Positions 1-52,032 of a stretch of 64,000 bases of DNA are shown piece by piece (within the stretch, counting starts at the first letter, position 1; every line of letters starts with the position of its first letter). Both the position numbers and the translations under genes were made by a program. Below the pieces are notes generated by a model that did not search any database, was not told the DNA's origin, and saw only the letters and a list, made by a program, of their open reading frames with translations. Origin of the DNA: Candidatus Omnitrophota bacterium (lineage in GTDB: Bacteria > Omnitrophota > Gorgyraeia > JACQQV01); the NCBI GenBank assembly GCA_016206785.1, contig JACQQV010000010.1, positions 302-64,301 on the forward strand, written 5' to 3'.

Positions 1-484
1 AGGCTACCTCTCACGGGAACGGGGGGCCCGCACGATCAAGATTAAATCTTCTCTTGGGGGACGTTTTCCGAATCGTCCCCAAAAGCAAGCGGGACGCTTC
101 GGAGAAAACGTCCCTGTTTTGGGTGCGATCGCAGCGGGTTCCCCGATCCTCGCGGAAGAAAATCTTGAAGATCACCTCCTGGTAGACGAACGATTCGCCT
201 CCGGAAAAAATATTTTTGCCCTCAAGGTCAAAGGCGAAAGCATGCTCGGCGCAGGCATCCTCCCCGGAGATTATGTCCTTGTACGGCAGCAGTTGAAAGT
301 CGAAAACGGTGAAATCGCTGCTGTCCTCCTTGACGATGAGGCGACCGTGAAGCGGGTCCATTGCTCAAAAACGACGTTGCGCCTCGTGAGCGAAAATCCG
401 GCGATGGCGCCGATAGAGGTGCGGGAAAATGAGAAGCGCGTGCAGATCTTGGGAAAAATAGTTGGTGTTATGCGGAAGTTATAG
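1..484 (+). CDS. lexA: LexA repressor, C-terminal S24 peptidase domain. The N-terminus lies upstream of the window; the frame is open back to nt 2.
   Basis: The translation VPVLGAIAAGSPILAEE...VKGESMLGAGILPGDYVLV...GEIAAVLLDDEATVKR matches the LexA cleavage and dimerisation domain, including the catalytic Ser (GESM) and Lys (TVKR) context. There is no stop upstream in frame. Confidence 0.85.
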   Translation, partial: GYLSRERGARTIKIKSSLGGRFPNRPQKQAGRFGENVPVLGAIAAGSPILAEENLEDHLLVDERFASGKNIFALKVKGESMLGAGILPGDYVLVRQQLKVENGEIAAVLLDDEATVKRVHCSKTTLRLVSENPAMAPIEVRENEKRVQILGKIVGVMRKL

Positions 485-609
485 AAAGACACGAGGCCTT
501 GCCTTAAGACGCATGTGCGCAGGCCGAGCATCAAGCGCAGCAACGCACGCTGGGGGTTGCAAGCGGTGCGGCGAAGGCAAGGCTGAGTGGCTTTCATGAT
601 CGATAAACA

Positions 610-2661
610 ATGCAACGACTTAGTAATCCTCCCAATCCCTACGAATCGTCGTATCGAGAATATCTCGAAGAGCCGCCGCTCACAGAACTGGAGGTTTACG
701 AAGACAATTCGCAAACGATCCTTTCCAAAAATGAGAGCCCCGACCTTTGCTTTACATGGAGCCTCAACCCGTATCGGGGATGCATGCATGGATGCGCTTA
801 CTGCCTATCGGGTGATACACCGATTGCAATGGCAGACGGCCGCACAACACCTCTTGCCGATGTCCGCGTGGGCGACGAAATCTATGGAACCATCCTGCGC
901 GAGAAATACCACTACTTTGTCAAGACACGTGTCCTCGCTCACTGGAGCGTTGTAAAGCCCGCATACCGCGTCACACTCGAAAACGGAGCACAGTTCATTA
1001 CAAGCGGTGACCATCGATTCCTGACGAACCGAGGGTGGAAATATGTCATAGGTACACAACAAGGGCGAACGAGACGACCGCATCTTACAACAAAGAATAA
1101 ACTGATCGGGATAGATCAGTTTACAACGCCGCCCAATGCGGTTCTCGATTATCAAAAAGGATACTTGTGCGGTATGATTCGTGGCGATGGCTTACTCGGA
1201 TCCTATAACTATGATGGACGCAGACGGGCCAAAGATTCACAATACCAGTTTCGGCTCGCACTCATCGACCCAGAACCTCTGCAGCGAGCACAGCGATACC
1301 TGTCAAGATTCGGAGTGTCTACTCACGAATTCTTGTTCCAAAAACCGATCACGGGATACCGACCAATGCATGCAATCCGCACAAATGCCCGCTCTCACGT
1401 TGAACGTGTCAATGAGCTTATTCAATGGCCGATGGAATCAAATATCGACTGGCATAAAGGCTTCTTAGCCGGTATCTTTGATGCAGAAGGCAGCTACAGT
1501 TGCGGGGTGCTTCGCATATGTAACACAAGCACTGTTATCATTAACAGCATCACCGACAGCCTCCGGCGGCTCAGTTTCGACTACGCAATCGAAAAAAGGC
1601 CGAGAGAAAAACCCATTTACAATGTCCGCGTACGGGGTGGCCTCGGAGAGCATCTGCGATTTTTTCATACAACCGATCCGGCCATCACTCGGAAGAAGAA
1701 TATTGCAGGCCAAGCGATTAAGAACCGGGCTCGCCTACGCGTATCCTCCGTTGAAGCCCTCAGGCTTTCGCTACCGCTCTTCGACATGACCACGGGTACA
1801 GGCGACTTCATCGCCAACGGCGTGGTCAGCCACAACTGCTACGCCCGTCCTACGCATGAGTATCTCGGGTTCGGCTCAGGAACCGATTTTCAGACAAAAA
1901 TTGTCGTGAAACCAAAAGCCCCTGAACTCTTGAGAGCCCACTTTCTTAAAAAATCGTGGAAAGGGGAACTGATCCTCTTCTCGGGGAATACCGACTGCTA
2001 TCAACCCCTTGAAGCGTCTTGGCAACTGACGCGCCGGTGTCTCGAAGTCTGCCTTGAATTTCAGAATCCGGTCTCCATCATCACGAAATCTTACCTTGTG
2101 ACACGGGATATAGACCTTCTGAAGGAATTGGATTGCAAGGCATTTGTCCAGATTTTTTTCAGCATCCCTTTCCTCGACGAGGAGGTCTCGCGGCGTCTTG
2201 AGCCCTTCACCGCCACTCCCCGTCGGCGATTTGAAGCGATGAAGCGCTTGTCTTGCGCGGGACTCAAGACAGGGATCTCTCTTGCGCCACTCATCCCAGG
2301 CTTAAACGACGCCGATATGCCGCGTCTCCTTAAGACAGCAAAAGAGTCAGGGGCCTCCTCTGCGTTTACTGCACTTCTCCGTCTTCCGGGGAATGTGAAA
2401 TCGGTTTTCTTAAAAGAACTCGAAACCCATTTTCCACTGAAAGCCAAGAAGGTGATCGATCGCATTCGGGAAGTCCGTGGGGGTCCGCTGTACAATTCCA
2501 ATTTTTTTGAAAGGCAGGAGGGACAAGGAAATTACTGGGACCATCTGGAAAAAACATTTGAGGTGTATCAAAGGAAGTTTGGACTCGACCAGTTTCCGGA
2601 GCCGCCTTCACCCTCCCCCTTTCGTGTTCCTTCGGAACAGAAGGAGTTCGCTTTCTTCTAA
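610..2661 (+). CDS. Radical SAM protein of the SplB / DNA-repair-photolyase-like family (COG1533), interrupted by an intein.
   Basis: The extein reads NPYRGCMHGCAY-[intein]-CYARPTHEYLGFG. Once the intein is removed this restores the CxxxCxxCY radical-SAM motif typical of COG1533. The C-terminal 274 aa form an ordinary radical-SAM barrel. Confidence 0.8.
   Translation: MQRLSNPPNPYESSYREYLEEPPLTELEVYEDNSQTILSKNESPDLCFTWSLNPYRGCMHGCAYCLSGDTPIAMADGRTTPLADVRVGDEIYGTILREKYHYFVKTRVLAHWSVVKPAYRVTLENGAQFITSGDHRFLTNRGWKYVIGTQQGRTRRPHLTTKNKLIGIDQFTTPPNAVLDYQKGYLCGMIRGDGLLGSYNYDGRRRAKDSQYQFRLALIDPEPLQRAQRYLSRFGVSTHEFLFQKPITGYRPMHAIRTNARSHVERVNELIQWPMESNIDWHKGFLAGIFDAEGSYSCGVLRICNTSTVIINSITDSLRRLSFDYAIEKRPREKPIYNVRVRGGLGEHLRFFHTTDPAITRKKNIAGQAIKNRARLRVSSVEALRLSLPLFDMTTGTGDFIANGVVSHNCYARPTHEYLGFGSGTDFQTKIVVKPKAPELLRAHFLKKSWKGELILFSGNTDCYQPLEASWQLTRRCLEVCLEFQNPVSIITKSYLVTRDIDLLKELDCKAFVQIFFSIPFLDEEVSRRLEPFTATPRRRFEAMKRLSCAGLKTGISLAPLIPGLNDADMPRLLKTAKESGASSAFTALLRLPGNVKSVFLKELETHFPLKAKKVIDRIREVRGGPLYNSNFFERQEGQGNYWDHLEKTFEVYQRKFGLDQFPEPPSPSPFRVPSEQKEFAFF
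802..1836 (+). mobile_element. Intein of 345 aa with a LAGLIDADG homing-endonuclease domain, inserted in the Fe-S cluster motif of the radical SAM gene.
   Basis: It starts with CLSGDTPIAMADG (intein block A with Cys1) and ends VVSHN, followed by the +1 Cys at 1837. There are two LAGLIDADG-type motifs, YLCGMIRGDG and FLAGIFDAEGSY. The insertion splits the CX3CX2C motif. Confidence 0.75.
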
Positions 2662-2770
2662 AACGGGGAGGTCAAAAACATGCAGGCAGTGGTTGAACGC
2701 TTCGGATTCAGAATCCGGCTGAAGATGGCTGCCGTGATTCTTTTCTGGTTACTGTTTATCTAAGGGGGGA

Positions 2771-4567
2771 TTAGGAAACTTCAAGAACGGTGTTTTCGCC
2801 GCCGAAGGGATTGGTGACACGGCTCTGGCCAGAAGGATCTGCCTGCCAGACACCGTCCACATAAAATTGGTATTGATAAGAACCGGGAGGGAGAGAAAGT
2901 GTCAGTTTCCAAGCGCCGTTTTTCGTTCTTCTCATCGGGTTCGCTTGAGGATCCCAGTCGTTAAAATCCCCCACCAAGGAAACAGACTTTGCGGAAGGAC
3001 CCTCGAAGCCAAACACGACCGGCTTTCCAGAGACCTCTTCTCTTAAAAATTCCTCAAGTGTCCGGCGCACCTCCCGCATATAGGGAAGTTTTTCTGTCAC
3101 AAACTGACCGATGAGGGAACTCCCTTCTTGAGAGAGATCCATAAAAGAAATGCCGTAGTGGGAAGCGTTCTCCTCATTGATTTTCCAGACCACTTTTCCC
3201 TGTGTCTCGAGACTCGATTTCCGTTTGGGGAAGAGAAGCTTTAAAGAAAGCGGACTCGGTAGTTCGACATTTTCTTTAAGTTCAAAAGAGATGCCCCCGC
3301 AACTTACATTTTTGGGATAGCCATAGAGGAGACGCCCCTGGGGTCCCTGCACCTCCACCGTCAAAGGAAGACCCCGTCTCTCAATGGGAAGGATCGGGAG
3401 GCGTGTCCATTGGCGCCTTTCTTCGCCTACCTCTTTTTCCCGGATCTCTTCGAGAGGCTGATGCTTCATCTCCTCCAACACGTTCTCCAGTTCCCGTCGC
3501 TGCGAGACCTCCTGATTCAGGCGCGTTGAGACTTCACGGAGCTCTTTCAAAAGATCCTCCTGAAGCGTCATTTTTTCATTCAATTCACCCTGAAGGACTC
3601 TGAGCCGATCGGAAAGTCCTGCCCGTTCACTCGCCATCTCCTCCAGGTAGACCGTGCGGGTCTCTACCTCTCTTCTCAATTTGGATCTTTCTTCAAGAAG
3701 CATCTTGGTTTCCTCTTGAACTTTAAGATGAGAGTTTCTCAGCGCATCGAGTTCTTTGCTAAACCGTTCTTCCCGAGAAACCCCTTCTTCCTTCAAGGCA
3801 ATGATCCGTTTCGCCATGTCCCAAGATTGTTGTTTTTCCTGTAATAAACGCTTTCGCATCAAAAACCAGGAAAGGGGCCAAAGGACCCCTCCGAGAATCA
3901 GGAAAAAGAGGACGAAGGAAGGAGTTTTATGCCAGGTGGAAGCGGTTGCGCGAGACCTTTGAGGAACCTCTGAGCGTCGCGTCTCTGTGCGGTGAGGCGG
4001 AGAAAGAGGGGTCATCCTCATCAAAGTCAAAGGAGGGGCCGTCATTTTTGCCATCGCCTCTTGGAATGCCCCTGCGAGGATTTCTTCCCGCTTATACTCT
4101 TGCGACCCTTCCACGGGAAGAGTAGTGAGCATTACTTTTCCTGTAATGAGATCACTCCCCGGGATTTCCTTTGGATGCCGGATCACAAGCACAATCGACT
4201 TGGAGCCTTCAAACACTTCGTAGGTGGTCTTGGCCAAGAGGTTGAAGGTTAACGTCTTGAGGGGTTTTTTTGCGCCGAGGAGAGGATAGCTCCGAAAGTA
4301 AGTCGCCTCGATCCCCTTCACCATCCCTCTCTGAATCGGAACCGACGAAGGGATGTTGCTATAAACGGAACTCTCGAAAAACCGAAAGACGATTTTGGGG
4401 GGATCGGATTGATAGAAATGACGGTAGATCATCGGGCCGGAGGTGTTAATGACCACACGGGTACTTTCGGAAGACTTGGACTCTGTGACGCCAAGCGCCG
4501 ACTGAGACTTAAGAATAAGCATCCCCACCGCCAGAGCGGTGGCAAGGAAAAATCCCTTTCGCATCAT
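2771..4567 (-). CDS. Secreted coiled-coil protein with a PilZ-like domain and a C-terminal CBM48/AMPK-beta glycogen-binding domain.
   Basis: There is an N-terminal signal peptide (MMRKGFFLATALAVGMLIL). A long heptad-like charged segment follows. A NVSCGGISF PilZ-like motif is present. The C-terminus VVFGFEGPSAKSVSLVGDFNDWDP...WKLTLSLPPGSYQYQFYVDGVW is typical of CBM48. Confidence 0.5.
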   Translation of the reverse strand: MMRKGFFLATALAVGMLILKSQSALGVTESKSSESTRVVINTSGPMIYRHFYQSDPPKIVFRFFESSVYSNIPSSVPIQRGMVKGIEATYFRSYPLLGAKKPLKTLTFNLLAKTTYEVFEGSKSIVLVIRHPKEIPGSDLITGKVMLTTLPVEGSQEYKREEILAGAFQEAMAKMTAPPLTLMRMTPLSPPHRTETRRSEVPQRSRATASTWHKTPSFVLFFLILGGVLWPLSWFLMRKRLLQEKQQSWDMAKRIIALKEEGVSREERFSKELDALRNSHLKVQEETKMLLEERSKLRREVETRTVYLEEMASERAGLSDRLRVLQGELNEKMTLQEDLLKELREVSTRLNQEVSQRRELENVLEEMKHQPLEEIREKEVGEERRQWTRLPILPIERRGLPLTVEVQGPQGRLLYGYPKNVSCGGISFELKENVELPSPLSLKLLFPKRKSSLETQGKVVWKINEENASHYGISFMDLSQEGSSLIGQFVTEKLPYMREVRRTLEEFLREEVSGKPVVFGFEGPSAKSVSLVGDFNDWDPQANPMRRTKNGAWKLTLSLPPGSYQYQFYVDGVWQADPSGQSRVTNPFGGENTVLEVS

Positions 4568-35225: not shown

Positions 35226-35485
35226 GGTTTTAAAAGAGTTTCAAATCGGGGTAAACAAAAAACCGAGTTCCATTTTCAGGCAACTCGGCAGTCTATCGTT
35301 CAGATCCGCAGTTTTGTGCCCCAGCCTCTCGGCTGGTTTACCATTCTCTGAAAGGACTTTCTTCCAACTTGAAACTTATGGGGAAAGTATACCTTAGAGA
35401 AGAGGATTTTTCAAGGGAGTATTTATAACTTCTGCGTCTACTAACACATCATAACACTTTAAATTATATATAGATATGAAATGGA

Positions 35486-51497: not shown

Positions 51498-51572
<75 letters not shown>

Positions 51573-51579
51573 AGAAAAT

Positions 51580-51664
51580 TGGTGGGCGGAAGAGGGCTCG
51601 AACCTCCAAGGATTTCTCCACAAGCTCCTAAGGCTTGCGCGTATACCAATTCCGCCATCCGCCC
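51580..51664 (-). tRNA. tRNA-Leu (TAG).
   Basis: It is 85 nt with a long variable arm, acceptor GGGCGGA/TCCGCCC and anticodon loop CTTAGGA. The CCA is encoded. Confidence 0.8.
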
Positions 51665-51711
51665 TTTTAATCCTCTATCCGCCATCGGTTTGGTGCAAAA
51701 AGGAAGTTCGT

Positions 51712-51783
<72 letters not shown>

Positions 51784-51813
51784 GAAGATCAAAACATATA
51801 TTATAACATAAAT

Positions 51814-51832
51814 GGCGTGCCTGGCAGGACTC
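51814..51832 (-). repeat. 19-nt exact direct duplicate of the 3' end of tRNA-Arg (GCGTGCCTGGCAGGACTCG), 126 nt downstream of the gene.
   Basis: The two copies at 51814..51832 and 51959..51977 are identical. This is an att-like partial tRNA duplication. Confidence 0.6.
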
Positions 51833-51958
51833 GGCGCCCTCCGCTCACTCCGTTCGCTTCGGGTCGGCCCCCCGCCCGCAAACCGCATGCTCCCTATTCG
51901 GTCGCATGCTGCGGGCTCCCTTCGAGTCCCAAAGGGCACGCATCGACGAGAAATTCAG

Positions 51959-52032
51959 CGTGCCTGGCAGGACTCGAACCTGCGACGCCCAGCTTCGAAG
52001 GCTGGCGCTCTGTCCAACTGAGCTACAGGCAC
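51959..52032 (-). tRNA. tRNA-Arg (TCG).
   Basis: The reverse complement is GTGCCTGTAGCTCAGTTGGACAGAGCGCCAGCCTTCGAAGCTGGGCGTCGCAGGTTCGAGTCCTGCCAGGCACG with anticodon loop CTTCGAA. Confidence 0.75.

Follow-up and report, generated by a model that had tools for sequence, protein, structure and literature searches.

Inteins in radical SAM proteins of the COG1533 group are already on record. Novikova et al. (2016; PMC4760082) name SplB/COG1533 as one of the main hosts of inteins in bacteria and count 48 inteins there; all of these are from Actinobacteria, and the insertion site is not described in the main text of that study. In the accessible parts of the literature on inteins in radical SAM, SplB, photolyase-like or Rv2578c hosts, this table entry was the only one found. 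Here we describe an intein from outside the actinobacteria, for which the insertion site can be mapped. It lies in a 64,000-nucleotide stretch (the window; positions 302 to 64,301 of contig JACQQV010000010.1, assembly GCA_016206785.1) of a Candidatus Omnitrophota bacterium, in an open reading frame (ORF) at 610..2661 that is interrupted by 345 codons at 802..1836. The insert is very probably a genuine class-1 intein with a two-motif LAGLIDADG homing endonuclease, probably still active, in an Omnitrophota gene of the PA0069 family.

The closest catalogued architecture is the NCBIfam model NF038136, 'intein-containing Rv2578c family radical SAM protein', which has the same insertion point (CVY↓CLAG...VSHN↓CFARN; arrows mark splice junctions). 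The correspondence was checked with an intein-free homologue, P0121, whose residue 70 (its Cys+1) aligns to position 335 of the model. An intein of the NF038136 type is 54% identical to that of the window over the full length and shares both LAGLIDADG motifs; a protein of this type from Micromonospora sp. CA-249363 (locus L065) scores 913 bits on the model, for which the cut-off is 700. The difference is in the host gene, as the window extein is only ~34% identical to the Micromonospora exteins. The NCBIfam scans returned no separate model for an intein-containing PA0069 family.

Host gene and insertion point

The ORF is on the plus strand, starts with ATG and encodes 683 residues in a frame that is intact over its full length. 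The identical protein is present in NCBI, from a Candidatus Omnitrophica metagenome-assembled genome (MAG), where it is labelled only 'radical SAM protein'. The features of the precursor are listed below; exteins and LAGLIDADG motifs are numbered along the precursor (aa), and splicing and catalytic residues from Cys1 of the intein.

610..801, plus strand: N-extein (aa 1-64) of a PA0069-family radical SAM protein, ending C58-M-H-G-C62-A-Y64
781..783, 793..795 and 799..801, plus strand: first two cluster cysteines (C58 and C62) and Tyr-1 (Y64)
802..1836, plus strand: whole intein, 345 aa, residues 65-409 (CLSGDT...VVSHN), class 1, arranged as HINT-N, LAGLIDADG endonuclease and HINT-C
802..840, plus strand: block A, CLSGDTPIAMADG, with Cys1, the nucleophile of splicing step one, at 802..804
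1003..1014, plus strand: core of block B, S68-G-D-H71, a Ser variant of TxxH
1114..1716, plus strand: LAGLIDADG homing-endonuclease domain, intein residues ~105-305
1162..1191, plus strand: LAGLIDADG motif 1, YLCGMIRGDG (aa 185-194), with the presumed catalytic Asp129 at 1186..1188
1462..1491, plus strand: LAGLIDADG motif 2, FLAGIFDAEG (aa 285-294), with the presumed catalytic Glu229 at 1486..1488
1777..1836, plus strand: blocks F and G, LFDMTTGTGDFIANGVVSHN, with Asp328 at 1783..1785 and His344-Asn345 at 1831..1836
1837..2661, plus strand: C-extein (aa 410-683) and stop codon, with Cys+1 at 1837..1839
Joined, intein-less target site of the window gene: GGATGCATGCATGGATGCGCTTAC↓TGCTACGCCCGTCCTACGCATGAG

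The sequence abutting the insert reads ...NPYRGCMHGCAY on the N side and CYARPTHEY... on the C side, so that a contiguous CX3CX2C motif (CMHGCAYC-YARP) is present only after in silico splicing. Removing the insert changes two profile matches. The precursor matches the NCBIfam PA0069 model (NF033668) in two stretches with 361.1 bits, just above the cut-off of 360, and its match to Pfam Radical_SAM (5.9e-14, above the gathering score) is confined to the C-terminal part (446-575). Once spliced in silico, the protein scores 379.7 bits on NF033668 in a single stretch, with residues 17-333 aligned to profile positions 26-342 of 348, and 63.5 bits on Radical_SAM (PF04055), covering profile positions 2-164 of 166. 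The initial annotation had anticipated that excision would restore the motif, and the single uninterrupted PA0069-family match bears this out.

The same annotation called the host 'SplB-like', which is correct at the level of COG1533 but not in the sense of a spore photoproduct lyase: against the SplB model TIGR04070 the window protein reaches 11.9 bits (E = 0.076), whereas the cut-off is 400. It also falls below the cut-offs of the two Rv2578c models, with 204.7 bits on NF038135 (430) and 457.8 bits on NF038136 (700). These profile scores assign the host to the PA0069 family of radical SAM proteins, sister to the Rv2578c family, and not to the spore photoproduct lyases.

To place the insertion point, homologues of the in silico spliced extein were collected from 1.84 billion cluster representatives. 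Intein-free homologues of 343-356 aa and 47-51% identity (P0121, P0122, P0123, P0127 and P0130) align in one stretch that spans query residues 64/65, with collinearity beginning at residue 3, and read NPYRGCxHxCAYCYARP across the junction. Among the top 150 representatives, 116 carry an uninterrupted CX3CX2C-[YFW]-A-[RK] motif and about ten are broken at the same point, and all 119 of 119 homologues have C58, C62 and Y64. The insert directly follows Tyr64 and directly precedes the third Cys of CX3CX2C, and so separates the second and third cysteines, as had been proposed for this gene. At the DNA level, the surroundings of the insertion are conserved at codon positions 1 and 2 only (GG-TGY-nnn-CAY-nnn-TGY-nnn-TAY↓TGY-TWY-GCn-CGn), which is the pattern expected from a protein-level constraint on the target.

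Neither a second intein nor a paralogue of the host gene was found when the window was searched. Antisense ORFs over the intein (805..1155 and 1465..1713 on the minus strand, among others) were considered and set aside as mechanical, since the plus frame is conserved in hundreds of homologues.

Splicing residues, endonuclease and fold

Conservation was counted in an alignment of 120 full-length relatives, of ~685 aa and 53-100% identity. The residues expected to carry out splicing are nearly invariant. In block A, Cys1 is present in 118 of 119 sequences and G4 and T6 in all 119; in block B, Ser68 is kept in 116 of 120 and His71 in 119; and the F-block Asp328, the penultimate His344, the terminal Asn345 and Cys+1 are each found in 120/120. 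Profile searches agree for the N-terminal end, where NCBIfam intein_Nterm (TIGR01445) matches with 29.4 bits (1.2e-06; cut-off 24.5), while the Pfam Intein_splicing match is weak (1e-4) and under its cut-off.

The two LAGLIDADG motifs are similarly constrained. In motif 1, Asp129 is kept in 120/120 relatives and G120, Y121, G124 and G128 are invariant; in motif 2, Glu229 is kept in 119/120 and D227 in 120/120. Pfam LAGLIDADG_3 matches the precursor at 6.9e-07, above its gathering score, and at 8.2e-08 (32.8 bits, cut-off 22.5) in a second scan. The consensus conservation of the endonuclease domain as a whole (0.69) is the same as that of the C-extein (0.68).

An AlphaFold2 model of the intein, built from a 24-sequence alignment, has a mean predicted local distance difference test score of 92.3 and a predicted template-modelling (TM) score of 0.88. 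It consists of a beta-rich N part, two alpha-beta-beta-alpha-beta-beta-alpha halves and a beta-rich C part. The endonuclease halves open with helices 115-129 and 215-229, and from the model and Foldseek comparisons the endonuclease is placed between blocks B and F of the HINT fold. Foldseek searches of the PDB with the whole intein return PI-PfuI (1dq3, 8e-15), the TliVMA intein (7qsu) and PI-SceI (1vde), with E-values to 6e-13 and a probability of 1.0. These inteins differ from that of the window in sequence (12-19% identity) and in host (ribonucleotide reductase, VMA ATPase), and the whole-chain root-mean-square deviation (rmsd) of 15-16 Å from solved inteins indicates a different domain orientation. 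Compared separately, the endonuclease domain superimposes on I-DmoI with a TM score of 0.75-0.79 (about 0.78) and an rmsd of about 3 Å over about 180 residues. By sequence alone, the sole match among solved structures is the DnaB mini-intein 4o1r (E = 0.002), and there is no close relative. The initial annotation of a full-length intein at 802..1836 is thus sustained with its coordinates exact; the terminal residues that it read in the sequence (Cys1, the His-Asn end and Cys+1) are conserved in 118-120 of 120 relatives, and the two LAGLIDADG motifs that it named are both present.

These features are consistent with the following pathway. Splicing would begin with an N-S acyl shift of Cys1 at the Tyr64-Cys65 bond, aided by Ser68 and His71, after which Cys+1 would attack the thioester in a trans-thioesterification step. 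Cyclization of Asn345, aided by His344 and Asp328, would then free the intein, and an S-N shift would leave an ordinary Tyr-Cys peptide bond (Tyr64-Cys410). With ...GCMHGCAY and CYARP... joined in this way, C58-X3-C62-X2-C and with it the three-Cys [4Fe-4S] site would be restored. Cys+1 would have a double role, as second splicing nucleophile and as third cluster ligand, and because the cluster site would itself be made by splicing, [4Fe-4S] binding and enzyme activity would be possible only afterwards.

By calculation, the precursor has a mass of 78.2 kDa, the ligated extein one of 38.9 kDa and the intein one of 39.3 kDa. The last two would be expected to co-migrate, which makes the gel mass-shift test suggested in the initial annotation ambiguous.

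For homing, the freed intein would use Asp129 and Glu229 to cut intein-less alleles at the DNA encoding G-C-x-H-x-C-x-Y↓C-Y/F-A-R, and repair templated on the intein-bearing copy would copy the element in. The target would remain fixed because the host needs its cluster ligands, and this would explain both the persistence of the element and its jumps between distant hosts.

Distribution, mobility and alternative readings

A one-genome-per-species scan of 185,579 species, with the intein alignment as query, located relatives of the intein at at least 493 places. The best 80 of these are in Omnitrophota, Actinomycetota, Acidobacteriota, Beta- and Gammaproteobacteria, Myxococcota, Planctomycetota and Gemmatimonadota, and include cultured Micromonospora and Planosporangium (Actinomycetota), as well as Microbulbifer magnicolonia (Proteobacteria). 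The CX3CX2↓C junction is shared by 77 of these 80 loci. The same intein is found at the same site in two diverged host families and in at least eight phyla. The description of a radical SAM intein as rare and notable, made when the gene was first annotated, does not survive these counts, the existence of the NF038136 model or the 48 inteins tabulated by Novikova et al.; the intein belongs to an already catalogued family that is spread over hundreds of bacterial species, and it is a well-preserved but ordinary example. What is new here is modest: the spread across phyla and across host families, the exact mapping onto the cluster motif and the under-annotation of the public record.

Three further inteins were encountered in the searches. 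(i) A second, divergent intein lineage (P0144 and P0248, metagenome proteins; ~28-30% identical; CLEPDTPILYADMTW...TSTRTFFAAGLATHN) is inserted at this very position in hosts of the PA0069 family. (ii) In the Streptomyces sp. P9-2B-2 plasmid NZ_CP129127, a DUF5131 (Gp37/Gp68) protein carries an intein at an analogous site (GCDRVSKGCDN↓C...THN↓CYA). The host family is different, and the intein is 28% identical to that of the window and 38% identical to that of P0144; related inteins thus occupy look-alike Cys-x-x↓Cys-Tyr-Ala sites in two protein families. The 611-aa ORF (2339..4174 of locus L083) is absent from the plasmid gene table and adjoins a 'three-Cys-motif partner protein TcmP' gene. 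(iii) In the virus Rctr197k (KX853510; L082 1292..4561), a coding sequence named 'radical SAM protein-like' is a SNF2-type helicase with an intein 26% identical to that of the window, and the name appears to have been transferred via the intein part.

Evidence for mobility comes from comparing intein and host divergence at the 71 best loci, of which 43 have host exteins of the Rv2578c type and 28 of the PA0069 type. Extein identity averages 55% within host families and falls to 35% between them, while the inteins are 59% identical within families and 56% between them. Intein identity is flat at 56% for extein identities of 25-45%, and is still near that value where host identity drops to 26-35%. 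Among the closest hosts (extein identity of at least 80%), the intein is less conserved than the extein, at 77%. An element that evolves faster than its host at short distance and is more alike than its host at long distance fits transfer between hosts better than co-divergence. As an individual case, the third-closest listed intein (60% identity), from the Actinobacteria MAG L003, resides in a host that is only 34% identical. Presence of the intein is also sporadic: the intein-free alleles P0126, P0128, P0129, P0145, P0167 and P0260 are 58-66% identical to the window extein, and the nearest intein-bearing relatives, at 57-58%, are as close as these intein-free alleles. Decay is represented by P0138, with a 167-aa mini-intein from which the endonuclease has been lost, and by P0144 and P0211, in which the LAGLIDADG acidic residues are gone. 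Taken together, decoupling, sporadic presence and decay stages point to a mobile, horizontally spreading element. Searches of phage and plasmid collections yielded no close copies of the intein, the best matches being 26-28% identical.

Several observations weigh against this interpretation or restrict it. Splicing, cluster binding and DNA cleavage are all inferred, and the F-block His usual in many inteins is missing here (GTGDF). The base composition of the intein (51.4% GC) is matched to that of the host gene (50.3%), as is the GC content at third codon positions (54% versus 55%), which indicates an old resident, so that recent homing in this genome cannot be shown. The intein's nearest neighbour is in the same host family at 66 of the 71 loci, and inheritance is therefore mostly local or vertical. 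The loci and proteins compared were picked for their likeness to either the intein or the complete precursor, a choice that favours well-conserved inteins, and part of the identity plateau could be due to strong purifying selection acting on the intein.

Among other explanations, that the 345 residues are a native domain that is never excised, or that an insertion has turned the ORF into a pseudogene, has a negligible probability in our view. The same segment does recur in >120 proteins of ~685 aa, as a native domain would, but a metal-binding motif cannot work when split by 345 aa, and many equally distant homologues are precisely without the segment. This explanation was rejected on the conserved intein signatures at both ends, the HINT and LAGLIDADG fold and the intact frame. 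A splicing-competent intein whose endonuclease is now inactive, and which stays resident only because the host enzyme would not survive an imprecise loss of the intein, deserves more consideration, although we regard it as unlikely. It would account for the full match in composition, for the finding of no close copy, and hence no candidate for a current vector, in phage and plasmid collections, and for relatives with dead motifs (P0144 and P0211) or a deleted domain (P0138). An unselected domain would, however, have decayed at divergences of 55-70% identity, whereas the lineage to which the window belongs keeps the two acidic residues and the motif glycines nearly invariant across the 120 sequences, and the domain as a whole is as conserved as the C-extein.

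A third explanation, which we consider improbable and less so only than a native domain, is that the intein has been domesticated as a conditional switch. The unspliced precursor itself reads C58-X3-C62-X2-C65 (CMHGCAYC-LSG), such that the splicing nucleophile is the third Cys of a decoy motif; iron-sulfur or zinc binding, or thiol oxidation, at this decoy would block step 1 and tie maturation of the enzyme to redox or iron status. Cysteines -7, -3, 1 and +1 are kept in 118-120 of about 120 relatives, in 110 of 122 comparisons the intein is better conserved than its host, and the host family is DNA-damage regulated according to the literature on PA0069 and Rv2578c, with the window gene directly after lexA. 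Environment-sensitive splicing is reported elsewhere, for example for the Pyrococcus horikoshii RadA intein (PMC4513877). On the other hand, any intein with Cys1 and Cys+1 recreates its upstream context, so the decoy motif may be incidental, and retention of the catalytic residues (D129 in 120/120 and E229 in 119/120) points to selection for mobility rather than for a role in the host. An intein is absent from most of the family (116 of the 150 top representatives), and versions that are endonuclease-less or degenerate occur, as a parasite would predict. An intein that splices from the cluster motif and probably still homes is the reading we retain.

Genomic setting and significance

The gene lies close to lexA, and the remaining features of interest in the window are as follows.

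2..484, plus strand: 3' part of lexA, encoding the C-terminal 160 aa of LexA, truncated by the window edge, with an AAG cleavage site, GESM and VKR
484..595, plus strand: imperfect hairpin between lexA and the radical SAM gene
2771..4567, minus strand: 598-aa ORF
35275..35351, minus strand: c-di-GMP-I-GGC riboswitch variant
51501..52032, minus strand: cluster of four tRNA genes

The lexA fragment ends 125 nt upstream of the radical SAM ORF, on the same strand. With the LexA fragment as tblastn query, no match was obtained in 81 related loci, taken with flanks of up to 4 kb. The lexA linkage is thus local, and a connection to the SOS response rests on the literature for the two host families: PA0069 is named among 15 Pseudomonas aeruginosa SOS genes in a preprint (bioRxiv 10.1101/2022.03.14.484287, citing Cirz et al. 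2006), and a peak in Mycobacterium tuberculosis LexA chromatin immunoprecipitation sequencing is located at Rv2578c/Rv2579 (PMC3381160). The two 22-nt arms of the intergenic hairpin are separated by 68 nt and show 82% complementarity; the hairpin has a folding energy of -54.3 kcal/mol and a z-score of -3.8 against shuffled sequences, and matches no Rfam family. A terminator or an attenuator is possible, as is some other structured element. Downstream, the 598-aa ORF encodes a protein whose signal-like N-terminus is followed by a long middle region resembling a coiled coil, and its C-terminal part looks, by eye, like a PilZ domain and a carbohydrate-binding domain. The riboswitch variant (RF03167) is matched over the full model length with 63.2 bits (gathering threshold 59).

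The public record of this protein needs an intein-containing annotation. With this locus and its relatives, the range of COG1533 inteins now extends beyond Actinobacteria, and a single intein allele is seen to have spread through two diverged host families and no fewer than eight phyla, all stages of the homing cycle being represented. As its natural target is highly conserved across phyla, the endonuclease may be a candidate for a broadly usable meganuclease scaffold. If conditional splicing proved true, this would be a new case of post-translational control of an iron-sulfur enzyme, in a radical SAM repair protein of the SOS regulon.

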